This document shows positions 14,632-37,860 of a stretch of DNA of 64,000 bases, one piece after another. A program made the translations under genes and the position numbers. Below the pieces are notes generated by a model. It was not told the origin of the DNA, ran no database searches, and worked only from the letters and a program-made list of their open reading frames with translations. The stretch comes from Shigella phage Moonfish, in the sequence record PQ613263. One strand, 5' to 3'. Positions within the stretch are counted from its first letter, which is position 1. Each line of letters begins with the position of its first letter.

Positions 14632-17600
14632 TTGAACAGGAAACATGCTATGTCAACATTTGACCGTCTGGCAGGTTTCGCAGACAGCATCACTAATGCC
14701 AAGCAAGTCGATGTCTCTACTGCAACCTCTCAGAAGCAAGCTGCACAAGGGCAAAGCCCTTTCCAATTAACCCCAGAGAATGCTTACAATCTCCAGACTG
14801 GACGTGTAGGTAATCTTGGAACTGGTGCATTCGAACCAGGTTCACTTCAGGCTGACTTCACTCAAGCCTCCCCATTAGAAATCATTAATAAGTACGGTAA
14901 TGAGAAAGGTTTACAGATTCTTAATAGCCGAGCTAATGCTGCTGATGTTGTACGTCAGGACTTATCTAAACAGCGTACTAACGCAGAAGCATTTGGCGAT
15001 ACTCTTTCTGGTGTTGGTCTTGGTGTTGCTAATACCCTTGGGGGCATTGCTGCTCTTGGCACAGGTCTGGTCAATGATAATGCCGGGGCATCCATTGCTT
15101 CCGGGATGGATTGGCTGAATGAAGGTGTACGCAATCTCCAGTCTGATGCACTGAATGCTACCCGTAAAGTTGTTCAGAATCAGAACCAGATTTCTGCTCA
15201 AAAGAACCAGAAACTTTACGAGCAAGATATTAAGAATGGGGAGAACGATTTGGTTGCCTCCCTGTCTCGCATTGGTCGTGACGCTTTTGATTCTGTTGCT
15301 AATACACTTGATAATGGTATGGCTGCTACCGATGGACTGAGCGAAGGTGTTGGTTCCCTCTTTACTGCTGGTCCACTTATCCGTGGTGTGTCTGCATTAG
15401 GTAAAGTAATGGTTGGTGGTGATAAAGCTGTTAGGGGTATTACCTTAGCTGCTGAGTTGGGTTCACGTCCTGCACAGGTTGCACTGTCTGCTGGTCGCGT
15501 TGCTGCACCTGCTATTGCAATCGGTGGCATGGAAGCAGGTGGTGCATACCAACAGACTGCATCTGAAATCATGAAGATGTCCCACCAAGAATTGGCAAGT
15601 AAGTCTCCTGTTTACCAACAACATATTGCTGATGGTTTACCTCCTGATGAAGCACGTCGTCAGACTGCATCTGAAACAGGTATCACTGCTGCTGGCTTAA
15701 CTGCTCCAGTTGCTGCTGCTACTGGTCCACTGGTATCTCGCTTTGAACTTAACCCACTTAGAGTAGGTTCACTGGCTGGTGCTGGTTCTAATATGTTACG
15801 TGAGACTGTAGAAGAAGGTATTCAATCCGGCTTTGGTCAGTTCGCACAGAATACTGCAATCAAGGAAAATGTTGATGCATCCCGTGACACCCTCAAAGGG
15901 GTCGGTGAGCAAGCAGGGCTTGGTGCACTCTACGGCTTCGGTAGTGCTGGAGTTGCTCAAGCTCCTGGTGCAACTGTTAAAGCTGCTGGTGCTGCCACTG
16001 CTCCTGTTGTACGTACTACCCTGGCTGGTGCTTCTCTGGTTGGTAATGCATTAGCTAAAGCTGCTTCCCCTATTACTAACATTCTGGTTCAACGTGGTGA
16101 AGAAGTTGCTAAGCGTAATGAACAAGCATCCCCTGTAGCTGATGCTACGGTTAATGCTGCTGCACAAGAAGCTACTGCTCAGGCAGAACAAGCACAAGCG
16201 ACTGTACAGGAAGCAGTAGATGCAATGGATATCTCTCCTGAGGAGAAGGCTGCTGCTACTCAGTATGCTGCTGACTTAACTCAGGCAATGAACTTTGACC
16301 CTGTAGAATTGGAACAAGCTAACCCGGTAATTCGTGAAGCTGTTTCTGGTTCCACTAACCGTGTTGAAGCTATTCAGAAGATGGCTGACTTGGTTAATAC
16401 AGCAGAAGACCCTAACGTTCAAATGGAAGCTGCTATCCAGATGTATGACAACATCATGTCTATGGATAGCTTCATTAACCGTGACCCAGGTGCACTGGCT
16501 AATCTGGAACAGGGTTCACCTGCTGCTACAATCGTAGACCAGTTCTCTGGTCTGATGGCTAACGTACAGAATACACCGAAGGTACTTCGTGCATTCCGTG
16601 CTATCCATTCCATGATTCAGGAACAGGCTGAAGCAGGTAAGCTGAAAGCTACTGAAGAAGCTAACCAAGCTCAAGCAAACAACATTGCCATGGCTGCTGA
16701 CGTGTCTCCAGAAGTATTGGATGCAGATTCAGTGAACATGGTTCTGAAACATGCAAGTGAAGGTAAGATTACACTGGGGAATCGTCAACGTGCTGCCCTG
16801 CAATCTGCTGCTGCCTTGTTACAGGGTGCACGAGAGTTTGACGCTAAAGCAGAAGAACTAGGCTTACGTCCTCAAGACATTGTTAGTAAACAAATTAAAA
16901 CCGACGAGTCTCGTTCTAACGAAGGACAGTACTCTGCGTTGCAACATGCGAAACGCATTCGTTCTGCGTATAACTCTGGTAACTTCGATTTGGCTTACGC
17001 TTATCTGAGCGACTTTATGAAGTTCGCCCAGCACATGCAGAATAAGGTCGGAGCGTTGAATGAGCATCTGATTTCTGGGAATGCGGATAAGAATAAGTCT
17101 GTTCATTATCAGGCTCTCTCGCCTTCCCGTGAATGGGTACGTAGTCGTACTGGCCTCGGTGTCAATCCTTACGATACCAAGTCTGTTAAGTTTGCCCAGC
17201 AAGTAGGACTGGAGGCCAAAACCGTAGCTGATATTGCTAACGCACTTGCTACGGCTTACCCGGAGCTTAATGTTTCTCATGTGAAAGTTACCTCGTTGGA
17301 TTCACGTCTGAACAAGCCAGCTGCCCAGGTAGTTAAAGAGTTCCGTCAAGGTGGTCTTGATGCCACTCAGTCTCAACAGACCAATGAACCAGTGAATCAG
17401 GTTGATGAATCTCCTGCACCAGTGCAAGAGGACACTACTACTGTACAGCCTAAAGCTAAACCTGTGGTAGAAAATAAGACTGCTCCTACTAAGGAGACTA
17501 GCCCAAAAACAGAAGAAGTCTCTACTACCAAGTCTGAAACAGTAGAAGCTACCCTCACTAATGAGGATACCATCCAGGAAGTAGCTGAAACCAAAACAGA

Positions 17601-20600
17601 AATGGAAACAGTGTTCCCCGTCTATAACAATGAAAAGACACCGAACCAGTTCCTGAAAGCATTTACCCTACCAGAAGAACCTAAGTCTCGTACCATTGGT
17701 TCTGAGTCTCCGTTGACTGATGTTAAGCAAGCACTGTCTTCTGTTGCTCGCTTTGAAGCATTCACTCAAAAAGAAAATAACGCTCTCACAGGTGATGTGA
17801 TTAAGCGTTATCAGGACTTAATGGACTTTGGTGAAACTCTGAAGACTACTTTGTCTGAACGACTGGCTAAGTTCCTTGCTAACAAAAATGTCGGTAAACG
17901 TTTTGCAGAAGGTACGGAAGCTAACCGTTGGGTAGGTGGCAAACTACTGAATATCGTTGAACAAGATGGTGACACCTTTAAGTTCAATGACCAGTTGTTA
18001 GAGACTGCTGTGCTTGCTGGTCTGCAATGGCGACTAACTGCTACACAGAATGCTGCTGTTAAAGACATGAAAGACGTAGCTGCTATTACGGGTGTAGAAG
18101 CATCTCTGTTACCAGAAGGTATTCTGGCTGAGTTCGAGAATGCTCAGACTCTGGTTGAAGCTACTAACTCACTGGCTCAGAAGATCGAATCCTACTGGGG
18201 TTTGAACCGTAACCCTAATGCACCACTGGGTTATACCAAGGGTATCCCAATGGCAATGGCTACAGAGATTCTGTCTTCCCTCATTGAGATGGGTGAAGTT
18301 AAAGAGTCTATGCTGGATGTGTCTGAGATTGACCCAGATTCCAATAAGACTGTCGGCCTGTATACCATTGAGAAGCTGGATGACAATGATGCCATTAACA
18401 AATTCCCTACTGCTATTGAGGAAGCTGTCCTCTTAGAACCAGAAGAGAAAATGTATTTCGGTGACGACATTCCTTCCGTGGCTCAAACTCAATTACGTAA
18501 TCCTGCTGTTAAGAATACCCCGGAACAGAAAGCTGCTCTGAAAGTAGAACAGGCTACTGAGTTCCGTGTACACATGCCGATGGTTAACTTCTATGAAGCT
18601 ATGGGCCGTGACAACATACTGGAATTGATGGGTGCTGGTTCTCTTAATCCTGAACTGTTGAACGTGAACACTGCTAAGTCACTGGAGGGTAAAAACCTGT
18701 CCGTGTCCATGGCATATGATTCCTTGTTTGGTGTAATCAATCAGATTAAGGAACAGGAGAATGGACTAGATACACCTATCCACTATGGCTACAACATGAC
18801 CCGTGTAGGTCGTATGCAGATGCTTGGTAAGAACAACCCACAGTCCAGCAAACTGGTACGTGAAGCAATCCTGCCAACCTTCTCTACTATTGACTTGAGT
18901 AATGAAAACAGCCAAACGTTCTCTGACTTCCAGTTAGGTCTGGCTCAGGCATTGGGTATCAAGGTTCATAATATGTCCCGTGAAGCTATGTCTGAAAAGC
19001 TGACCAAAGCTTTGGAAGGTAATCTGAAACCTGCTGTTGATATGATGGTTGAGTTTGATAAGTCTGGTCACTTACCTGCTGATGCAGTTGATATTCTGAA
19101 GACATCTCTGGGTGGCGATAAATCATTCGTAGCTCTCATGGCTCTTATGGAATATGCCCGTTACCTGAACAGTGATGACCGTGCCAACTTTAATACCCCT
19201 CTGTACGTTGAAGCCGATGGTGTAACCAACGGTCCGATTAACGCAATGGTATTAATGACTGGTGGTAAGTTCACTCCAGACTGGATTAAGAATACTGCTA
19301 AAGGTGGTTTGTTCTTCGGTAAAGCTGGTAAGACTATGAACGAACATCGTTCACAGGATGACAGTGTTGACTTGTATGAAGCATCCACCAATGGTCTGCA
19401 ACAAGCATTGGGTGAATTGCGTAGTACTTACCGTAACAACGTTCCTGTTATGAGCCAGATGAACCATCTCCAGAAGTTAATGGACCTGTTCATCAAAGAC
19501 TTTAACTTGAATGAAGACGGTACTTTGGACCTGAAACGTGGTATCGCTAAAAACCCACTGACTATTACCATCTATGGTTCTGGTGCACGTGGTATTGCTG
19601 GCAAGATGGTTAGTGCAATTACTGACACCATCTATGAACGCTTCAGTGACGTTCTGCAAGCACGTGCTGCTGACCCTAGCATTTCCCCAGCTATGGCGAT
19701 GTTTGGTAAGGAGGCTGCGTCTGAGGCTGATGCTCAGGCTATGCTGGATACTTTCCTTACTTCTATGGAAGCACTGACTGGTAATGTTCCAGTTATGCGT
19801 AAAGGCGAACTGTCTATTCAACAGGCAGAAGGTGCTCTGACTGGTAAGTTAGACCCTCAGAAGTTTACTGTATCTGGTAATGCCTTGAAGAACCTACAAG
19901 AGAACATGCTTCACTTGTTCGTTGAACCAATGCGTACAGGTATCCGTAATACTGTTGGTGAAGGTCTGATGCACTCTACTGAGAACTTGCAGAAGGCTAC
20001 TCAGATTCAGTCTCTGGTATTGCAGGATATGTTCCAACAAGCAGTACAGGCTAAACTGGCAGAAAAAGAAAATGACCCAACGTGGAAGAAGGGTGATTTC
20101 TTAACACAGAAAGAACTGAATGAAATTCAGGAATCATTATCTCCACTGGCTCCAATGATTGAGACTGGCGCACAGACTTTCTACATTGCTGGCAGTGAGA
20201 ATACTGATGTTGCTAACCAAGTACTGGCTACCAACTTAGATGACCGTATGCGTGTGCCAATGAGCATCTATGCCCCGTCACAAGCAGGTGTTGCTGGTAT
20301 TCCATTTATGACCATCGGTACTGGTGATGGCATGATGATGCAGACCCTTTCTACTATGAAAGGTGCTCCGAAGAATACCCTGAAAATCTTTGATGGCATG
20401 AACATTGGTATCAATGACATCACTGATGCAAGCCGTAAAGCTAATGAGGCTGTATACACTTCCTGGCAGGGTAACCCTATCAAGAATGTTTATGACTCCT
20501 TCGCTAAGTTCATGAAGAATGTAGACTTCAGTAAACTGTCTGATGAAACCAAACAGGCTATCGCTAAGTCTGCTCTGGAATACGACCAGCGTGAAGGTGC

Positions 20601-28678: not shown

Positions 28679-29233
28679 TTACGCCTTTAATAATTTAATG
28701 AGGTTCTGGAAAGATGGGAGATTTACACCAGCGTGGATTGCACCGATTGCATCAGCCAAGTGCTCATTCTTATTTAGAAGTTTGCCTTTCTTATCAGTGA
28801 GCCAGTTGGCTTCAGGATAAATGGCATGAGCAGCACGAATCATCGTGTCTTTGGATGCAGTCTTATCACCGACCAGTGCAAGTTTGTTTTCAATTGGGGA
28901 TACTTCAAAGATTGGACAACCCAATGCACGAAATGCACCGATTAATCCTACGCATACACCATAGGACTTCATACCGTTAGCGGACTGAGAGCCTACTGGT
29001 ACTTCTACGAATACTGCTTTAGCAGACCGTAACCATTCCTCACAACCAAGAAACAAATCATGAGAGGCTTGTATATCTTTGGAGTTGGTTCGAACTTGTT
29101 TGTTGTGGTCAACTTCAGTTTGAACCAGTTTAAGTTCGACCTGCTCGAAGACGCCGGACTCAATGTCCAGCATCCCACGAGCTAAACCCCAATTGCGGAG
29201 ACTAATATCTGCACCAACAATTGGGATTTTCAT
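28679..29233 (-). CDS. RuvC-like Holliday-junction resolvase
   Basis: N-terminus MKIPIVGADISLRNWG (RuvC-like first acidic motif) and C-terminal HLADAIGAIHAG. Confidence 0.45.
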   Translation of the reverse strand: MKIPIVGADISLRNWGLARGMLDIESGVFEQVELKLVQTEVDHNKQVRTNSKDIQASHDLFLGCEEWLRSAKAVFVEVPVGSQSANGMKSYGVCVGLIGAFRALGCPIFEVSPIENKLALVGDKTASKDTMIRAAHAIYPEANWLTDKKGKLLNKNEHLADAIGAIHAGVNLPSFQNLIKLLKA

Positions 29234-30030
29234 TATTTCTTACCGAACAGTGATTTACCACCTGCCGGAGCAGGACCAGTGTTAGCACCCGGTTTAGGAG
29301 GCAAGCCACCTTTACCATTACCACCAGCAGAACCCTTGGTCTTATCACGGGTTTTACCTTTGTTCTTTTCCAACCATGCTGTATGGAATACAGCCAGTTC
29401 TGGGGTCAGTTCTTTCTCAGCCTTCTCTGCTTCCTGAGCCTCGATGACTGTGACCAGCAGTTCCGGGTGAAACACTTTCTGAATCTCGTTTACTTCACGA
29501 GTTTCACCAGAGTCAACGTAACCGTTGTCACCTTTAACCTGCTTAGCTTCCAGAACCTTTTCCAGAGCAAAGGTAACAGTCTGACCTACCAGTTCAACTG
29601 GAACCATGACAGACTTGTTGGTTTCTGCTTTCAGGTCAAAGTCATAGACTTTAACAATCTTCTCTTCGAAGTCAGCATCCGGCAGTTCATTACCAGTAGC
29701 CATCAGCATCATGTCATTAATGACAGTGTAACCAGGCAGGAAGTATTCTTTACCGTTCTTCTCGTAAGTCGGCTTGTTGCCTTTAGCATTACCAGAAGTG
29801 AAGTACACCTGGGCACGGAACTCACCAGCATCATTTCCATCGGAACCTTTCAGGTTTTCGATGATTAACTGCATCCAGTCTGCACCGGAGTCAGCTTTAC
29901 CTACGTAAGCTACTTTTACAGTACCGGTATAGATATCAGTTTCTTTGGCACCGAAGCCACCACCACCAAGGGAGTCTTTTGCAGCTTCAACGTTTTTGGT
30001 TTTTTCTTTCAAGTTACCGAACAGTGACAT
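29233..30030 (-). CDS. Single-stranded DNA-binding protein (N4 gp45-like)
   Basis: 265 aa, matching the N4 SSB length as I recall it; Gly/Lys-rich flexible termini; sits in the replication module. Confidence 0.45.
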   Translation of the reverse strand: MSLFGNLKEKTKNVEAAKDSLGGGGFGAKETDIYTGTVKVAYVGKADSGADWMQLIIENLKGSDGNDAGEFRAQVYFTSGNAKGNKPTYEKNGKEYFLPGYTVINDMMLMATGNELPDADFEEKIVKVYDFDLKAETNKSVMVPVELVGQTVTFALEKVLEAKQVKGDNGYVDSGETREVNEIQKVFHPELLVTVIEAQEAEKAEKELTPELAVFHTAWLEKNKGKTRDKTKGSAGGNGKGGLPPKPGANTGPAPAGGKSLFGKK

Positions 30031-30071: not shown

Positions 30072-30824
30072 TTAAGCGTAGTATTCAGCCAGATGGTCTA
30101 AGAGTTTTTGAGCGTCATTATCAATGTACGTCTCTGATTTATCGAACATACCCATTGGGGAACGTAAGCGTTTACCAACAGACTTCTTGGTTGGGCGAGT
30201 CTGGAATACGTGCTTATAGCCTAAGTCACGTTCTTCTTCGGTAATTTCAAGCATCTTGTTGCCATACTTCTCCAGTTCTTTAATGTCTACACGTTCTGCG
30301 TAAACCACTGTAGAGAAGTATGCCTCAAGGCCATTATTCTTCAGGGAGCCTTTCACTGGGATGAAGGTTTTCATCACACCAGCTGCCTCGTCGAGTTCAT
30401 CTTTGGCATGAGCAGTAATGATTACAGGCTTACCAAACTTAACAACTTTCTGTTGCAGCAGTACTTTAAAGAACTGTGCAAAGTCTCCCCAGGCTTTCTG
30501 GGTATTAGCAGATGGCAATACATATTGTGATTCCAACATGTCCATCATGAAGGTAGCAGAGTCGATAATGATACCATCAACATCGTCTGCCATTTCCCCA
30601 CCCGGAGATGCAACATCAAATGCTTCCCAAATCTGATATGGGTCTTCAATGTTGTAGGTGTTGAACTTATTACGGAAAGGTAGGCGTTTACCTGCTTCAG
30701 TATTCAGATACAACCAGCGTTCCTGGTTACGAATATTACGCAGTGATGCTGATTTACCACTCGCTGAAAATCCTGCAATCAGGATTAGCTGAGTGTTCAT
30801 ATCATTGGAAATTTCTTCGGACAT
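30072..30824 (-). CDS. P-loop NTPase (putative replication/recombination ATPase)
   Basis: Walker A LILIAGFSASGKS; 250 aa. Confidence 0.45.
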   Translation of the reverse strand: MSEEISNDMNTQLILIAGFSASGKSASLRNIRNQERWLYLNTEAGKRLPFRNKFNTYNIEDPYQIWEAFDVASPGGEMADDVDGIIIDSATFMMDMLESQYVLPSANTQKAWGDFAQFFKVLLQQKVVKFGKPVIITAHAKDELDEAAGVMKTFIPVKGSLKNNGLEAYFSTVVYAERVDIKELEKYGNKMLEITEEERDLGYKHVFQTRPTKKSVGKRLRSPMGMFDKSETYIDNDAQKLLDHLAEYYA

Positions 30825-30880: not shown

Positions 30881-33091
30881 TTATTTGCCAGCGTAGCGTT
30901 TAGCCACAGTGACCATTACGGTTGCATTCAATTCATCATCTGGTAATGGATTAGCCAGTTTCTTATTGAATGAGTAGACGGATTGTTGTACTTGAGCAAA
31001 GTCCCAACCACTGTCTACTAATGCCAGTGCGTACTTAATCATTTGATTATTACGATTACCGGAGGCAATGCGATCAGCGAACCAACGCTCCAGATTGTCT
31101 AACGACTGAACTTCCTTCATCTGGTTCTGGAACTGCTCGTTCTTACTGGTACGAGGAATAAAGTCACGCACGTCCAACAGATTCGCATCAAGGTTGTAAT
31201 GATAGGAACCAGTTTCACAGGACATCCACTTCTTGGCTCGTTGGTTAGCAGACTCATCCGTTTCGAATGGTAGCCAAGCCATAACGTTATTCATGAACTC
31301 TTTATACTCCTCAGTATCGAGGTGTAACTCATAGTTCATTGGAATAATCAGACGGAAGCGGTTCTCTTCATCAGTATGACGCTTAGTGGTATAGGTCATG
31401 AACTTATAATCCTTCATTAGTTCATGGCACGTATGCAGTGGTACTCCACCATCACAATCAATAACAATCATGTTAAATCCTGGAATCACGTTCTCATCAG
31501 AACGATGTCCATTCTTCATGTGATGGTTCACCCAGTGCATACCGGGAGCTTGGGTTAATACATGTAGCTGGTCGAACGGTACGCGTTCACCAACATAGTC
31601 ATAAGCAAAGCTTTCACTATAAGCCACCAGCATCTCATTGGTGTCAGTCTCTTTCAGAGTTTCACCACGGAAGAACTCAATACCTTCATTGAATGTCTTC
31701 TTAATAATGATGTGCTGTTTGTAACCCCATGCTGTAGCAAGAGTCATCATCTCATTGCGAGCTGCATTACCACTCTTATAGAACGGTAAGGACTCCAGCA
31801 AGTCAGCATGGGTTACTTCTTTCCCTACTGAAGCAATATACTTAGCCAGCTTCACATAGGCTTTTTCACGATTGAGGATTGTCTGGAATGCTGCCCCGGA
31901 TTCCTCTACAAGCAGGATTGCTTGTTTGAGGTGAGCCATCTCAATGAATGAACTCTGGTCAACAAACGCCAGTGCACCTGCTAGCTTAAGAGCTTTGAAG
32001 TAACGATGGGATATTTCAGCCTTACGAATTTCTTCGTGGTCAGCCATAGCTTCTGCTTGTTTCTCACAATCAATTTTGTAAGTAATCAGAGCAATACCCA
32101 CTGCATCTTCCACAATCATCTTAAAGCCAAACAAGTTTGGGTCAGCCAGACTATGGAAGTGGTTAGCCCACTTACCAAGAGACTGAACGTTATCCTGCTT
32201 AATCAGGTTACGGTAGATTTCTTCAGGAGTCAGTGTTGCATGTGCTCGCTTGTCTAAGTGCCCGATGGCAAACAGGCAACGACGAGCATACCCTGTATCA
32301 AGGAAGTCATAGAACTGGTCTTCAGTTTGCCCACCATCCAGCAGCTTACTCGGAGTACCGAACAGCAGTAGGTTAGCAGGAGTTTTACCATCCAGTTCTT
32401 CGCCACGAACACTTTCAGCAGTGTTCTTGGTTAACTTCTGTTTTACTTTCCCCTGGTCATATAACTCAAGGAACAGGTTAAGTACTTCAACGTTGGCAAT
32501 AAGGTTGGAACCAATCTCGTCAATCTGTAGGTTAATGCCACCACAACCAGCCATAAGCAGTTTGTGACGGAGTTGTTTTACAGCAGGTGCTGTACCAGAG
32601 TCGAATGTGAATGGGAATGCCCCAGCACGTTTATACTCTGCTTCAACTTTATCGAACTCTTCCTGCTGGTCAGTACCCTGACGTGCAGAACGTTCGTTAG
32701 CAATCTTCCATAGACGGTCATTTGCAATGACGGGCATGGTGTCTTCCATAAAACGTTTACGGAAGCCAGTCATGAACCCGTCTTCAATGATATTTACTGA
32801 GTGACCTTTACCGAAACCAGATGTAGCCAACGCCATAGCGTAGATGTTTACTGGCAGGTCACCACGGTCTTTAGTTACGATGGTTGCACCCATGCAGGAT
32901 GCCATTTTAGCCAAGAAGTAGGCTACTTCGACACGGAAGAATCCCCGGTCGTTATTCTGGGTTTTATTGCAGAGCACATCTACGATTTCTTCAATCGCCG
33001 GATGATGCACTACTCCGGTAAGGTCAATACTCATGATGGAAAATATCTCTCTCTTTGTTTGCAAATGGACGCGACAGGGCAATATAAACAA
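30881..33091 (-). CDS. Putative DNA primase (N4 gp43-like)
   Basis: 736-aa ORF between the ATPase/SSB genes and the polymerase; size and position match the N4 primase. Confidence 0.4.
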   Translation of the reverse strand: MFILPCRVHLQTKREIFSIMSIDLTGVVHHPAIEEIVDVLCNKTQNNDRGFFRVEVAYFLAKMASCMGATIVTKDRGDLPVNIYAMALATSGFGKGHSVNIIEDGFMTGFRKRFMEDTMPVIANDRLWKIANERSARQGTDQQEEFDKVEAEYKRAGAFPFTFDSGTAPAVKQLRHKLLMAGCGGINLQIDEIGSNLIANVEVLNLFLELYDQGKVKQKLTKNTAESVRGEELDGKTPANLLLFGTPSKLLDGGQTEDQFYDFLDTGYARRCLFAIGHLDKRAHATLTPEEIYRNLIKQDNVQSLGKWANHFHSLADPNLFGFKMIVEDAVGIALITYKIDCEKQAEAMADHEEIRKAEISHRYFKALKLAGALAFVDQSSFIEMAHLKQAILLVEESGAAFQTILNREKAYVKLAKYIASVGKEVTHADLLESLPFYKSGNAARNEMMTLATAWGYKQHIIIKKTFNEGIEFFRGETLKETDTNEMLVAYSESFAYDYVGERVPFDQLHVLTQAPGMHWVNHHMKNGHRSDENVIPGFNMIVIDCDGGVPLHTCHELMKDYKFMTYTTKRHTDEENRFRLIIPMNYELHLDTEEYKEFMNNVMAWLPFETDESANQRAKKWMSCETGSYHYNLDANLLDVRDFIPRTSKNEQFQNQMKEVQSLDNLERWFADRIASGNRNNQMIKYALALVDSGWDFAQVQQSVYSFNKKLANPLPDDELNATVMVTVAKRYAGK

Positions 33092-34011
33092 CGTTTAACC
33101 TGCCCCTCCACGACCTTGATAGCACCCTTGCCACCTTTTTCAGCCATGAAGATACGGGCAGATGCCATATCATCAAAGTTTTTGGTACTTCTGGCTCCAG
33201 GTACATCTACCCTAGAAGCATCAGAGAAGTATTTGAACTGTGGCTCTGTTCGCCACAACTCCTCGTCAGTACATTCGGGGATTTCCTCTTCAGGTGCATC
33301 CCAGTACTTCTCGATTAAGTGAATTTTCTCTTCCACCCAACGTTCAGTCTTCTCGGCAGACAGCAACGGAATATCCTTATGCATAATACGATTAGCAGGA
33401 TAGTTAGGATTACTGTTAGCCATGTGTTTCATGAAGTCGGTGAAGATGTAGTTAATACGGATTACATCCTCGGTAATGATGTCGTTGTGAATCCAACGAT
33501 ACAAGCTGCCCTGCATCTTGTGTTCATCATCACGGGAACCAGCAACCCAAGAATAGGTTGAGGTAGACTTGAAGTCTTGCAACAGACCTTCTGTTACGAT
33601 GTCGAACTTACCACCGATAGTCCAACCCTTAACTACCTTGGTTCCACGTTGTTCAATGTAGATTGGGATAAGGTCAGGGTTAGCAGCAAAGTCTGCTTTG
33701 GTTGGGTTAATGACTACTGCATCAATGACTCGCTGAGGATAACCCAGCTTCTTCAATGCAGTCTTGTGGCCTAGCTTCCAGGCTTTCTCGATAGAATCAT
33801 GTAAGCCAGTGCCCATTGATGTGGCGACGAAATCCATAACATCAATAGACTGGTCACTAAAATCTACACGATGCTTCATGACGATTTGCTTAATAGGCTT
33901 AAGCAATGTAGTAGCAGACAGATACTTAGGATTGTCTACGTAATCATACTCGTCATGCAATAGCCATACAGCCAGAGCCAGTGAGACATCATGATTGTTG
34001 GTTATCCTCAT
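33031..34011 (-). CDS. Putative PD-(D/E)XK-type nuclease with C-terminal Cys cluster (Cas4/RecB-like)
   Basis: 326 aa; C-terminal CLYCPVASIC; 3' end overlaps the primase ORF start by about 60 nt. Confidence 0.35.
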   Translation of the reverse strand: MRITNNHDVSLALAVWLLHDEYDYVDNPKYLSATTLLKPIKQIVMKHRVDFSDQSIDVMDFVATSMGTGLHDSIEKAWKLGHKTALKKLGYPQRVIDAVVINPTKADFAANPDLIPIYIEQRGTKVVKGWTIGGKFDIVTEGLLQDFKSTSTYSWVAGSRDDEHKMQGSLYRWIHNDIITEDVIRINYIFTDFMKHMANSNPNYPANRIMHKDIPLLSAEKTERWVEEKIHLIEKYWDAPEEEIPECTDEELWRTEPQFKYFSDASRVDVPGARSTKNFDDMASARIFMAEKGGKGAIKVVEGQVKRCLYCPVASICKQRERYFPS

Positions 34012-34273
34012 TGTAAGCCTTTTTTAATATGCGGTTGGCATAGTGCACAATCTTCTCTGAGTCATACACCGAAGAGTTTCCGGGTTTACCATTACCCATA
34101 CGGGCAGCAGCATTTCGCCATAGAGCTTTAAAGGCACAACCTTCATCGAAGGTCATGCCCAGTGCTTGGATAATATCCTCACACTCTGCTTGATATGGTT
34201 TTTGCTCTATCCGTTGAGGGTTCTTAACTGACACTACATAGTAGTTATTAAGACCGCCGGAGAGCTTAGTCAT
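33989..34273 (-). CDS. Hypothetical protein
   Basis: 94-aa ORF. Confidence 0.3.
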   Translation of the reverse strand: MTKLSGGLNNYYVVSVKNPQRIEQKPYQAECEDIIQALGMTFDEGCAFKALWRNAAARMGNGKPGNSSVYDSEKIVHYANRILKKAYNEDNQQS

Positions 34274-34578
34274 TATTCCCCCTTAGGAACCATGTTTGCT
34301 TGGAACTCTGGTTCAGACATTAGACCCAGATTGTTAATAGACAGATAAACAATGTCTTTTAAATCAACTGAGGTGTCGAAACGCTGGTCCAGACTAATCT
34401 TCAAGGAATGGTTGGCACGGGCCAAATCTTTGTAGGTCACATGAGGTTCGTCAGTGAGCAGCATTGTGTTCATGGTAAGCAGGGAACCATCATCAGCTTT
34501 AGGAAGCTGGAAGATTACCTGTGCTGCTACCATCCAATGATATTTTCTGACAACGGTTTCTTTAGTACTTTTAGTCAT
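34273..34578 (-). CDS. Hypothetical protein
   Basis: 101-aa ORF, start/stop overlap with neighbours. Confidence 0.3.
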   Translation of the reverse strand: MTKSTKETVVRKYHWMVAAQVIFQLPKADDGSLLTMNTMLLTDEPHVTYKDLARANHSLKISLDQRFDTSVDLKDIVYLSINNLGLMSEPEFQANMVPKGE

Positions 34579-35498
34579 GCGAATGCCTTTTGAATTATTT
34601 GATGAACTTCTTCAGGGGTAGCGTGATTTGGAATCTCAATCTCGTTAGCCCACGTTGGGTAGAACAAGGACAGTTCCCCACCCAAACCAACTTCTGGATG
34701 AGCAATATCAGGATGGTCTTGCCAGTTAACGGCTTCAACCAAATGCTTGTTCGTGTACTGCAAGGTATCCATGTTGTCACGAATCATGAAGTACTGAGCA
34801 TCATGAATGTGAATACTAGGACGAATATCTAACCTGAACTCACTGGCTCTAACTTTACGCATAAACTCCGAGCCAGCACGGTTATTCAGTAGGCACCAGC
34901 TTTGCCCTAAGGCATTACCAGCAGTTCTACCTTCAGCTTCTGCTTCATATGGAGTCTTACATGTCCCACGTAAAACCTGAGCCAGTAAAGGAGTACGCAC
35001 TCTCAAACCAAATGCAGCAGTTACATAACCAGTCTTGGCAGCTTCGTCTAGCTTAGCCTGAACCCAAGCATCACTAACTACATAAAGGTCGTGATAACGT
35101 TTCTCTGTGAGCTTTGCTTTCTCTTCCGAGAAGCCACAGTTCTTCATTAAGCCCATATACGTACCACCATAGGTAAGCAGGAAGGTTGGAGCCTTCGAGT
35201 CACCTCGTAATGATTTGTATTTGTGCTGGATGGAGTTGATGGATTCAACCGTATCTACAATGTCTGGCATCTGCTCACCGAAGTAAGCATACGCACGAAG
35301 ACTGTGCCCATCATAACCATCGGTATATACCTTAAGTTTCTGGGGGTCTTTCGTAGTCAATGCAGAGATACGGTCTTCAAGGCTTGCAAAGTCCAGTCCA
35401 CAAAATATCCAACCTGGGGGTGCTTCGAAGCATTTCTTAATCTTCTTGGCATATTTGGAACCACTAGGGATGGTCTGTAGATTCCTGATGTTCAGCAT
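34575..35498 (-). CDS. DNA polymerase, family A, C-terminal part (downstream exon or fragment)
   Basis: Contains NLQTIP, the second half of the conserved PolA motif RLSSSDPNLQNIP, and a motif-C-like IHIHDAQ. Confidence 0.65.
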   Translation of the reverse strand: MLNIRNLQTIPSGSKYAKKIKKCFEAPPGWIFCGLDFASLEDRISALTTKDPQKLKVYTDGYDGHSLRAYAYFGEQMPDIVDTVESINSIQHKYKSLRGDSKAPTFLLTYGGTYMGLMKNCGFSEEKAKLTEKRYHDLYVVSDAWVQAKLDEAAKTGYVTAAFGLRVRTPLLAQVLRGTCKTPYEAEAEGRTAGNALGQSWCLLNNRAGSEFMRKVRASEFRLDIRPSIHIHDAQYFMIRDNMDTLQYTNKHLVEAVNWQDHPDIAHPEVGLGGELSLFYPTWANEIEIPNHATPEEVHQIIQKAFA

Positions 35499-35561
35499 GG
35501 GTCGTTAATCCATGCCCGTCTTTCGACTGCTGCATATTCCTATGCAGAGCAGACTATATCA

Positions 35562-36095
35562 TCACGCCAGATAGTAAGGCGTGCCATGCGCTTCCACCCA
35601 CTTGAGTGTACTCTCTTTCGAGATAGTCGTTGCACCTTTCAATGCTGCGTGTAACCGAGCGTGGTCAGGAACACTTAGCAATACAAGATTATCAAAGTCG
35701 TTGTTATACGGATTCTCATCACAATGATGCACACACCAGCCTTTTGGTATTTCACTGATATTAAGTGCCTCACATACTACCACATGGTGAGCAAAAACGT
35801 GTTTACTGCCTTTGCGTGCAGTATACCAATCCGGTTTAAGTACCATTAAGTAACCTTTACTGTCGGATACTAAACCTTTGTAGTTATGATGGTCTTTCCC
35901 AAATTTACCTAGCATGGGGTTATTTTCCCCCAGCTTGGAGCGTCGGTAAGACTTTGCATTTCTGTTTTGACGGTATTCTTTACTGTAGTTCTCCATAATA
36001 TATTTAGAGACTTTTTTGTAATTAATACCTAAACGCTTTGATATTTCTGCTTGAGATAGGTCAGTATTCTCGTACAGAGTCTTGATATCCATCAT
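35562..36095 (-). CDS. HNH homing endonuclease inserted in the DNA polymerase gene
   Basis: HNH core HHVVVCEALN...CVHHCDENPYNNDFDNLVLL...DHARLH; own RBS TAGGAGG; lies between the two polymerase pieces. Confidence 0.6.
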   Translation of the reverse strand: MMDIKTLYENTDLSQAEISKRLGINYKKVSKYIMENYSKEYRQNRNAKSYRRSKLGENNPMLGKFGKDHHNYKGLVSDSKGYLMVLKPDWYTARKGSKHVFAHHVVVCEALNISEIPKGWCVHHCDENPYNNDFDNLVLLSVPDHARLHAALKGATTISKESTLKWVEAHGTPYYLA

Positions 36096-36168
36096 GTGCC
36101 TCCTAAGGCAGGTATGGTTGATTTGGCTCAGGATTGCCCGGTCTGGGTTTCCCCTGAATTCACATGGT

Positions 36169-37860
36169 TTAAATAGCCCAATTTATTTTAGGCTCTGAAG
36201 CCGATAACCTGCCGGAGACCGTGCCTCCCAAATTGAGATTACCGAACAGATAGTGCCAGCCATCCGGTCCCGGTTGGGCGTTCCTGAAAGCTGGTATAAA
36301 GCTAGTAATAATCTTATCCACGAGCTTATAGTCGATAAGAGCATTGAGCAGTTCCTTAACATCTTCACTCTGCGTATGTGTACGCAGTGCTTTAATAGTG
36401 TCACCATCAGTAGCTGGTTGCTTGCTCTTAGTAAGACCAAGAACTGGTAAGCCAATAAAATCAAATAACAATTTCTGTAACTGTGGACCGGAGTTAGGAT
36501 TGAACTCGATGTCACAATCAGCCAATGTTACCTGCTTCTTCTTAAGCTTGGTATTCTTATCGTCTACCCATTCCTGACGAAGCATCAGGGTGAAATTCTT
36601 CATGAGCTTAGACTCACGAATAGTTTTCAGAGCCTGGTTCCTGTCAGTTTCCATTTCCTCAGCTACTTGGTTAACGGTTTCCATATTCATTGGCATACCG
36701 GTTAACTGCATCTGAATAATGTCTTCACAGGCAGGTTTAAAGATGTTGTTATAAACATCCAGTTGGTCATCAGCAATGAGAGTATCCCAGTGCTTCTCGT
36801 AGGTGTACCACGTACACAGTCCATCGATTAGGTTGTAGCGTAACAATTGCTCATTAGGAATAAGACAAATGTCTTTGATATCGTCTTGAGCATAGTTACC
36901 GGCATACTCCTGAGCCTGGTCTTTCAGACTAAGGTGATTACCAGCACAACTGTTAGTAGCCAGATAAGTGATTAACTTAGTGCAGTCCCAGTTACGTAGC
37001 ATGACGTTCATGCCATACAGTAGACCTTCTGTATCAATCAGGTTATCCATGAATAACTGATAGATAAGTACATACACGTCATAGCTAATGTTGTGATACA
37101 TCTGCCGTTGGGTGTACTTAATGAAGAACTCACGTAACAGGTTACGGACAATATCATTTCTGTTGATACGCCCATAAGGTGCTTCAGTAGCTCCCTTAAT
37201 TGGCTCGTAGTCCACATTAAAAGCTATGCCTTGTGTCTTACTCCAACAGAATGTAATCGTTCCTATACCGGCGTTATAGTGCTTTAAACCGAATGATTCG
37301 ATGTCTATAGCCAATGGCTTATTCATCTCCAGCAACTGGTCTAGCCAGGCTTTAATCTCTTCGGGGGTATCTGGGTAGGCCTCAAACTCAATGATTCCCT
37401 GACCTGGTTCAGCATACTGTCCACGTATGTGGTTAAGTAGTGCATCCATACCCTGAGCAATTTTAGCTCTCACTACAGGTGGGTCATAAAAGACCTGTCT
37501 GTAGTTAGGCGTATAGATAACCTTCTGCTTACCCCATACTGAGTCACAAACGTAGCCGAGGTTGGCCTCTGCTTTAGCTTCTTTAGTCAGTATTTTAAAG
37601 TAATCAGAATCGGTACAGATGACGTACTGAGTTTCTGCATCATCCAGTACTTGTTGCAGTTCCTGCTGTATGAACTCCTTAATCTCCTTTGCAGGAGTCT
37701 TCTTTTTGCCGGGGGCAGAGTGAAGTTCAAGGAAGATAAAATCTTCCATGCTTAGGTCATATGGCAGCAGGTAGGTTTTAATCATCTCCTCCCTTCGGAT
37801 TTGATGACCGAGGATAGCAATAGGATATTTACCCGTATCCTGAGAGGTGATGTAACGCAT
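36169..37860 (-). CDS. DNA polymerase, family A, N-terminal part (3'-5' exonuclease and start of the polymerase domain)
   Basis: Exo I motif LAIDIESFG; ORF ends inside SGRLSASEP, the first half of the PolA motif. Confidence 0.7.
   Translation of the reverse strand: MRYITSQDTGKYPIAILGHQIRREEMIKTYLLPYDLSMEDFIFLELHSAPGKKKTPAKEIKEFIQQELQQVLDDAETQYVICTDSDYFKILTKEAKAEANLGYVCDSVWGKQKVIYTPNYRQVFYDPPVVRAKIAQGMDALLNHIRGQYAEPGQGIIEFEAYPDTPEEIKAWLDQLLEMNKPLAIDIESFGLKHYNAGIGTITFCWSKTQGIAFNVDYEPIKGATEAPYGRINRNDIVRNLLREFFIKYTQRQMYHNISYDVYVLIYQLFMDNLIDTEGLLYGMNVMLRNWDCTKLITYLATNSCAGNHLSLKDQAQEYAGNYAQDDIKDICLIPNEQLLRYNLIDGLCTWYTYEKHWDTLIADDQLDVYNNIFKPACEDIIQMQLTGMPMNMETVNQVAEEMETDRNQALKTIRESKLMKNFTLMLRQEWVDDKNTKLKKKQVTLADCDIEFNPNSGPQLQKLLFDFIGLPVLGLTKSKQPATDGDTIKALRTHTQSEDVKELLNALIDYKLVDKIITSFIPAFRNAQPGPDGWHYLFGNLNLGGTVSGRLSASEPKINWAI

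Follow-up and report, generated by a model that had tools for sequence, protein, structure and literature searches.

A likely stand-alone RecB-family nuclease of Cas4-like fold encoded among the replication genes of Shigella phage Moonfish

gp42 and the closest described nucleases

Eukaryotic Exo5 and Dna2, as well as AdnB/AddB, are RecB-family nucleases carrying an iron-sulfur (Fe-S) cluster. The first cysteine of their nuclease domains is located before the nuclease core and, Exo5 excepted, the domains are fused to helicases or form part of large complexes. Cas4 (Sulfolobus SSO0001, PDB 4ic1) is an Fe-S 5'->3' exonuclease acting on single-stranded DNA in CRISPR adaptation, and is characterized by one N-terminal cysteine and a C-terminal CX2CX5C. 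The Fe-S triads of Cas4, AddB, Dna2 and Exo5 have precisely this CX2CX5C spacing. Lambda exonuclease, RecE and the YqaJ-type exonucleases are without a cysteine cluster and form toroidal oligomers. The subject of the present analysis is gp42 of Shigella phage Moonfish, encoded at 33031..34011 on the minus strand of a 64,000-nucleotide (nt) stretch of sequence record PQ613263, in the following called the window. gp42 was found to be, almost certainly, a RecB-family nuclease and the ortholog of N4 gp42, and it is likely a stand-alone PD-(D/E)XK nuclease whose fold resembles that of Cas4 and which may serve as the 'Exo' of a recombination module.

Compared with Cas4, gp42 is about 125 residues longer. 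The C-terminal triad of Cas4 is present, whereas the N-terminal cysteine is absent; the fourth cysteine of gp42, C247, follows the nuclease core and encloses an insert of about 60 amino acids. The position of C247 after the core also separates gp42 from Exo5, Dna2 and AdnB/AddB, and unlike the fused or complexed domains of Dna2 and AdnB/AddB, gp42 stands alone. The surrounding genes are those of phage replication and recombination (DNA polymerase, gp40, gp41, primase, Sak4 and the protein that binds single-stranded DNA, SSB) and not cas1/cas2. The structural similarity of gp42 to the lambda exonuclease, RecE and YqaJ type was lower than to Cas4, and no Pfam YqaJ match was obtained for gp42. 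The gp42 proteins of N4 and G7C (PHROG 2139, Schitoviridae) belong to the same family over the full length and share the gene order and the ATGA junction with the primase gene. No substantive difference from them was observed, except that the upstream gp41 homolog is shortened in Moonfish and reaches 23 nt into gp42.

The gp42 open reading frame (ORF) runs from ATG 34011 to TGA 33031-33033 and encodes 326 amino acids, corresponding to about 37.5 kDa. A first-pass annotation of this DNA had pointed to a 326-residue ORF with the terminal sequence CLYCPVASIC. This ORF is real, the sequence corresponding to residues 308-317 and to the pattern CX2CX5C; its location on the minus strand had been left unstated. 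The start at ATG 34011 is supported because the N-terminal consensus of the family, M-K-I-T-N-N, begins at residue 1, also in the distant relative from Leptospira phage LE4. An AAGG sequence is located 6 nt upstream of the ATG. For the plus-strand ORFs inside the gp42 region (32801-33322, 33319-33561, 33577-33774 and 33764-33943), none of the family matches was credible, and these ORFs were treated as shadows, not as genes.

gp42 matched PHROG 2139, 'exonuclease', with E 1.7e-151, well beyond chance; its residues 1-325 were aligned to positions 2-324 of the 330-position profile. A weaker match was obtained with PHROG 1706, 'CRISPR/Cas system associated' (E 1.9e-11). Moonfish gp42 is 95-99% identical to gp42 of the G7C-like phages G7C, PhAPEC5 and St11Ph5. 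By tblastn, a homolog covering at least 80% of the protein was found in 471 phage records, of which almost all are N4-like; identity is 99% in Gamaleyavirus and decreases to 35-45% in phages of Vibrio, Pseudomonas and roseobacters. In an exhaustive profile-based search, E <= 1e-30 was reached by 471 cluster representatives and E <= 1e-3 by 4028. The family is named 'exonuclease' in RefSeq, 'N4 gp42 protein' in some GenBank records and 'PD-(D/E)XK endonuclease-like domain-containing protein' in UniRef. gp42 was given as 'unknown' in 2009 (PMC2784036) and was annotated as 'PD-(D/E)XK nuclease domain-containing / N4 gp42-like' in 2021 (PMC7845610). gp42 is, in other words, nothing out of the ordinary: N4-like phages have it as a core gene, and it has been annotated before.

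Enterobacter phage SonariX (PQ898399.1) holds an N4-like gp42-gp43 pair, with a gp42 (228184..229170) that is 44% identical to Moonfish gp42. The record is an unannotated 'partial genome' of 248.7 kb, classified as 'Viruses' only, and provided no useful gp42 context. SonariX may be a jumbo phage whose replication block is of the N4 type, or the assembly may be chimeric.

Catalytic motifs, cysteines and predicted fold

Conservation of the motifs was assessed in 150 representatives, 35-52% identical to gp42 and less than 50% identical to each other. Two further sets contained 36 and 141 relatives, and the three sets together were 35-97% identical to gp42; the catalytic residues and the four cysteines were invariant in all of them. 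A sister clade, here called LE4-like, was represented by 120 sequences. All features of gp42 given below are on the minus strand.

Motif I, G67-T-G-L-H71-D-S-I-E75 (33787..33813), contains the putative metal- or DNA-binding His and Glu. G67 and H71 were present in 150/150 covering representatives and E75 in 145/150, and all three were invariant in the 120 LE4-like relatives. Motif II, G133-G-K-F-D137 (33601..33615), holds the predicted catalytic Asp, and motif III, D146-F-K148 (33568..33576), corresponds to (D/E)-x-K. Both were fully conserved (G134 and D137, as well as D146 and K148, in 151/151 sequences and 120/120 LE4-like relatives). The QxxxY motif of RecB-family nucleases, Q167-G-S-L-Y171 (33499..33513), was found in 151/151 sequences; in the LE4-like clade, Q was present in 120/120 and Y in 117/120. 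The PD-(D/E)XK motifs, on which the nuclease assignment of the first-pass annotation hinged, are accordingly present on alignment, and GxxxH...E, GxxD, DxK and QxxxY make up the RecB-family motif set, whose conservation was decisive for the nuclease assignment.

gp42 contains only four cysteines, C247, C308, C311 and C317. C247 (33271..33273), the first of the four, is located after the nuclease core in the sequence P-E-C-T-D-E-E-L-W, and was a cysteine in 150/150 covering sequences and in 120/120 LE4-like relatives. The remaining three form the triad C308-L-Y-C311-P-V-A-S-I-C317 (33061..33090), the putative Fe-S ligands, conserved in 147/147 covering sequences with truncated fragments as the sole exceptions. 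In the LE4-like clade the triad was likewise found in 120/120 members, with a first spacing of 2 to 4 residues. Residues 248-307 (33091..33270), between C247 and the triad, were modeled as an alpha/beta insert of about 60 amino acids, with strands at 258-262, 277-279 and 297-301 and a helix at 282-291. The predicted local distance difference test (pLDDT) score of this block was 80-92. By analogy with the known Fe-S nucleases, the four cysteines probably hold an iron-sulfur cluster. The invariant CX2CX5C triad fits the suggestion of a cysteine cluster of the Fe-S PD-(D/E)XK type; the fourth cysteine follows the core and is not N-terminal.

No conserved N-terminal cysteine was found in the 141 relatives of the gp42 family or in the LE4-like clade, where 115/120 members were without a cysteine in the first 60 residues. 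In Cas4 the N-terminal ligand is part of a 'C-P-R' motif, whereas the position resembling it in the gp42 family, judged by eye only, reads Lys/Ser-Pro-(Arg). A by-eye assignment of K38 as the residue in place of the Cas4 cysteine was unsupported; a non-significant hhalign alignment puts C16 of Cas4 nearer to residue 45.

An AlphaFold2 model of gp42 was built from the 36-sequence alignment, with a mean pLDDT of 89.1 and a predicted template modeling score (pTM) of 0.77. The model has the alpha/beta fold of the restriction-endonuclease-like enzymes, and its best match was Cas4: 4ic1 was ranked first by Foldseek with E 2e-6. In a comparison with models of viral proteins, the ortholog from an N4-like Delftia phage came first (template modeling score 0.89), followed by Cas4-like or PD-(D/E)XK nucleases of phages and archaeal viruses. 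The top structural neighbours were Cas4, Exo5, Dna2 and AdnB/AddB, which are Fe-S nucleases of the RecB family, each with one distant cysteine and a CX2CX5C triad.

Proposed role of gp42 in recombination and alternative readings

The isolated members of the sister clade are from the Leptospira phages LE3 and LE4. The proteins are approximately 290-300 amino acids long and about 23% identical to gp42, and every catalytic residue and all four cysteines of gp42 are retained (n=120). The LE4-like genes are found in contigs of phages that are not N4-like, with an annealing protein one to five genes away that belongs to an unlike family each time, namely RecT in LE4, ERF in two unrelated metagenomic phages and a Sak/Rad52-like protein in another. 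In the metagenomic contigs a RusA resolvase was always a divergent neighbour. A constant nuclease with a swapped annealing protein is the pattern of lambda Red and RecET, and for this reason gp42 is inferred to resect DNA ends. In the Moonfish window, the gene of the Sak4-like annealing protein gp44 is located two genes downstream of gp42, so that nuclease and annealing protein share one gene block.

In the LE4 locus (L006) and in six metagenomic loci (L010-L015), the divergent neighbours of the sister-clade gene were always a RusA resolvase gene and a Toprim-DnaB primase-helicase gene, and the annealing protein was encoded upstream in the same operon. In L014 and L015 a polyvalent protein of 3025 amino acids (ART-PolyVal, LPD38) is encoded nearby.

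Judged by this analogy, end resection for recombination is somewhat favoured as the main role of gp42. The Fe-S cluster on the four cysteines would stabilize the C-terminal part of the protein. With Mg2+ or Mn2+, gp42 would attack DNA at a free end and degrade it, most likely in the 5'->3' direction, a polarity suggested because Cas4, Exo5, AddB, RecE and lambda exonuclease act in this way. Resection would leave 3' single-stranded tails to be coated by the SSB (gp45) and annealed by the Sak4-like gp44, and the resulting joints would be resolved by the RuvC-like gp46. In this manner gp42 would supply the 'Exo' activity of a module of the lambda Red kind, which would support recombination-dependent replication and the formation of concatemers of a linear genome with terminal repeats. 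The confidence in the reading as a whole, as a likely one, is a blend of near certainty on the RecB-family nuclease and ortholog assignment, a good probability of Fe-S binding and a modest leaning towards the role in end resection.

Several results count against this reading. The first-pass annotation had suggested a search with hidden Markov models of Cas4 and PDDEXK_1. The match of gp42 to Pfam PDDEXK_1 (PF12705) was below the cut-off (17.9 bits, cut-off 22; E 0.0031), and for Pfam Cas_Cas4/DUF83 (PF01930) no match was found for gp42 at an E limit of 10 or in any of the 141 relatives at 0.01. At E <= 0.01, PDDEXK_1 was matched by 52/141 relatives, the best with 3.7e-7, and many LE4-like relatives have a precomputed PF12705 match. 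No NCBIfam match was found for gp42. Searches for a PDB relative by sequence gave chance-level matches or none, whether gp42 alone or a profile built from 36 or 141 sequences was the query. Alignment by hhalign with the nuclease domain of E. coli RecB gave a probability of 0.2%, and only motif I was aligned, with H71 opposite H956. A Cas4 profile (type I-D) was constructed from the cas4 gene of Synechocystis pSYSA and 26 relatives. Full-length hhalign against this profile gave a probability of 1.6% and was off-register except for the cysteine triad, which in this non-significant alignment was paired with C171-x2-C-x5-C180 of Cas4. After the 60-residue insert was cut out, motif I, motif II, the Q of QxxxY and the triad were colinear with Cas4, at a non-significant probability of 1%. 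The hhalign runs with Cas4 are consistent with the fold result and do not constitute independent proof. It is the fold and the motifs, and not sequence profiles, that relate gp42 to Cas4, and gp42 should not be assigned to the Cas4 family. Furthermore, the primase gene is located between gp42 and the annealing protein in N4-like phages, a looser adjacency than in lambda and Rac. Biochemical work on gp42 was absent from the searchable literature, where it is mentioned in genome annotations only, and polarity, substrate and metal content therefore rest on analogy. Finally, replication of N4 in vitro is reported to require a 5'->3' exonuclease of the phage, which may be gp42 or another protein.

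The last point is part of a wider interpretation. No gene assignment for the classical N4 5'->3' exonuclease was found in the searchable literature. It is conceivable, at somewhat less than even chances, that gp42 is this biochemically described enzyme, and that the gp42 and LE4-type proteins form a distinct, very large Cas4-like lineage, in which the first cluster ligand has shifted to C247 and which acts as a general 'Exo' for the four unrelated annealing-protein families Sak4, ERF, Sak/Rad52 and RecT. The lineage would be recognized by the invariant motif P-E-C-T-x-E-E-x-W around C247. If true, the cysteine 'staple' encloses the 60-residue insert and not the whole nuclease domain.

The main rival to end resection is a role at the replication fork, similar to that of Dna2 and Exo5, in which gp42 would clear away RNA primers or 5' flaps while the lagging strand is synthesized. 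Such an activity would fit with the N4-type DNA polymerases, which are without a 5'-3' exonuclease domain (PMC2784036), and with the coupling of gp42 to the primase. However, the location of the sister clade beside ERF, Sak or RecT together with RusA is the signature of a recombination module, and the Moonfish window itself contains Sak4, SSB and a RuvC-like resolvase. The fork role is accordingly considered unlikely as the main function, although the two roles are not mutually exclusive.

A second alternative concerns the cysteines, which could be zinc ligands or make up a knuckle with a structural role only, with the nuclease chemistry otherwise unchanged. The first ligand is not placed as in Cas4, AddB, Dna2 and Exo5, the first spacing varies in the LE4-like clade, and the hhalign match with Cas4 was non-significant and confined to CX2CX5C. 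Since the triad nevertheless has the Fe-S spacing of these enzymes, and the top structural neighbours are generally known as Fe-S nucleases, a zinc site or knuckle is regarded as rather improbable and the Fe-S cluster remains the preferred assignment.

Much less probable still is that gp42 is a true Cas4 homolog that interferes with or hijacks CRISPR adaptation of the host, as has been proposed for the Cas4-like proteins of Campylobacter phages. Cas4 was indeed the best fold match, and the weak match to PHROG 1706 points in the same direction. Against this, PF01930 was absent as described above, PADLOC found nothing, there are no cas genes or arrays nearby and the canonical N-terminal cysteine is lacking. 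In addition, hundreds of N4-like phages, irrespective of their host, have gp42 among the core genes of their replication module. Where the first-pass annotation had proposed a Cas4/RecB-like nuclease, the RecB part is borne out by the motifs and the Cas4 part by the fold, but gp42 is not a CRISPR Cas4.

The primase start and the replication gene block

The gene downstream of gp42 encodes the primase (30881..33034, minus strand), a homolog of N4 gp43, also named 'dns', with 717 amino acids from the corrected start. It matched PHROG 2135 (residues 3-715 to profile positions 2-711 of 713) and Pfam PriCT_1. A length of 717 amino acids from ATG 33034 is identical to that of gp43 of G7C; the St11Ph5 protein is named 'DNS protein'. 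The N-terminus of the Moonfish primase, MSIDLTGVVHHPAIEEIVDV, aligns residue for residue with that of N4, MIDLTGVSHHPAIEEIVDVL. The gp42 stop codon TGA (33031-33033) and the primase ATG (33032-33034) form an ATGA junction at 33031..33034 on the minus strand. The gp42 frame ends ...TAT TTT CCA TCA TGA, and the primase frame, ATG AGT ATT GAC, starts one base ahead of the stop. G7C, N4, St11Ph5 and PhAPEC7 also have this 4-nt overlap in their annotation. With its stop codon and the primase start joined in ATGA, gp42 is probably coupled to the primase gene in translation.

The first-pass annotation had described an overlap with the first 60 nt of the primase ORF and had concluded that one of the two starts was probably mis-set. 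An overlap of 61 nt (bases 33031-33091) does exist for the longest ORF, which encodes 736 amino acids from a TTG codon at 33089..33091 on the minus strand, one codon after an in-frame TAA; from the conserved ATG 33034 the overlap is 4 nt. The mis-set start is that of the primase, as ATG 33034 is conserved in the start of the family profile, in the four reference genomes and in the alignment with N4. Although TTG is permitted as a start codon and the ORF beginning there is the longest one, it is highly improbable that TTG 33091 is the genuine start. The 19 additional residues are not conserved as protein, the corresponding codon is CTG in G7C, and N4 has an in-frame stop within the stretch, 10 codons upstream of its ATG. 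The profile begins at the ATG, and the 19-codon extension encodes the invariant cysteine triad in the gp42 frame. The 61-nt overlap is an artefact of longest-ORF calling.

At the other end of gp42, the gp41 homolog (33989..34273, minus strand; 94 amino acids) matched positions 1-91 of the 157-position PHROG 9919. Compared with PhAPEC7, where gp41 has 155 amino acids, approximately 205-225 nt are absent just upstream of the Moonfish gp42 ATG. gp41 overlaps the gp42 start by 23 nt because it is shortened in Moonfish. In G7C an HNH endonuclease gene, gp41.1, is present at the gp41/gp42 junction, and this junction looks like an indel hot spot. In other phages the gp41 domain is fused to a polynucleotide kinase (PHROG 7063 and PHROG 4521).

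The 4.8 kb around gp42 showed about 94% nucleotide identity with the Escherichia phages PhAPEC7, PhAPEC5, E20, IME11 and others. On the basis of sequence, Moonfish is classified as a G7C-like N4-like phage (Schitoviridae, Enquatrovirinae, Gamaleyavirus). An ORF of 3456 amino acids at 14632..25002 of the window matches in length the virion RNA polymerase of the N4 type. The order on the minus strand is that of the N4 replication block: helicase gp37, gp38, DNA polymerase gp39, gp40, gp41, gp42, primase gp43, gp44, gp45 and gp46. The location of gp42 between gp41 and gp43 is common to G7C, N4, St11Ph5 and PhAPEC7. Downstream of the primase, and on the same strand, are the genes for the Sak4-like gp44 (30072..30824; PHROG 124, E 8.4e-50; Pfam AAA_24), the SSB, homologous to N4 gp45 (29233..30030; PHROG 743, E 2.7e-89), and the RuvC-like resolvase gp46 (28679..29233; PHROG 159, E 3.4e-42).

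That gp42 is a virion structural protein, as the 'structural protein' note in the GenBank record of pVa5 and the detection of a gp42-like protein of roseophage R7L among gel bands identified by polyacrylamide gel electrophoresis with sodium dodecyl sulfate and mass spectrometry (PMC11934525) might indicate, is barely credible in view of the enzyme fold, the invariant catalytic residues and the position in the replication block, and the presence of an SSB homolog in the R7L list suggests carry-over of abundant replication proteins.

The content of mobile elements was found to differ between the very close genomes of Moonfish and PhAPEC7: gp44 is intact in Moonfish (250 amino acids), while the PhAPEC7 gene is annotated with a putative intron encoding a small endonuclease. 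The DNA polymerase gp39 homolog (34575..37860, minus strand) is divided into two ORFs, with the N-terminal part at 36169..37860 and the C-terminal part at 34575..35498. An HNH endonuclease ORF (35562..36095) is located between the two parts. The Rfam model Intron_gpI was matched over its full length at 35530..35804 (minus strand) with E 1.9e-5, at 33 bits, below the gathering score of 50. An intron with an HNH gene is annotated at the same site of the PhAPEC7 polymerase gene, and the gene is uninterrupted in G7C and N4. ARAGORN found a single tRNA gene in the window, tRNA-Ile with the unusual anticodon AAT (26817..26895, minus strand).

The finding matters little beyond annotation. The primase coding sequence should start at ATG 33034, giving 717 amino acids and the 4-nt ATGA overlap, and a better product name for gp42 would be 'Cas4-like RecB-family exonuclease with a putative Fe-S cluster, recombination module', not CRISPR Cas4. 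Mildly unusual are only the shifted position of the fourth cysteine, together with the insert that it encloses, and the absence of any biochemical characterization of the family from the searchable literature. With this cysteine arrangement and with annealing proteins that appear to be interchangeable, the gp42 family could serve as a recombineering exonuclease for Sak4-type proteins.

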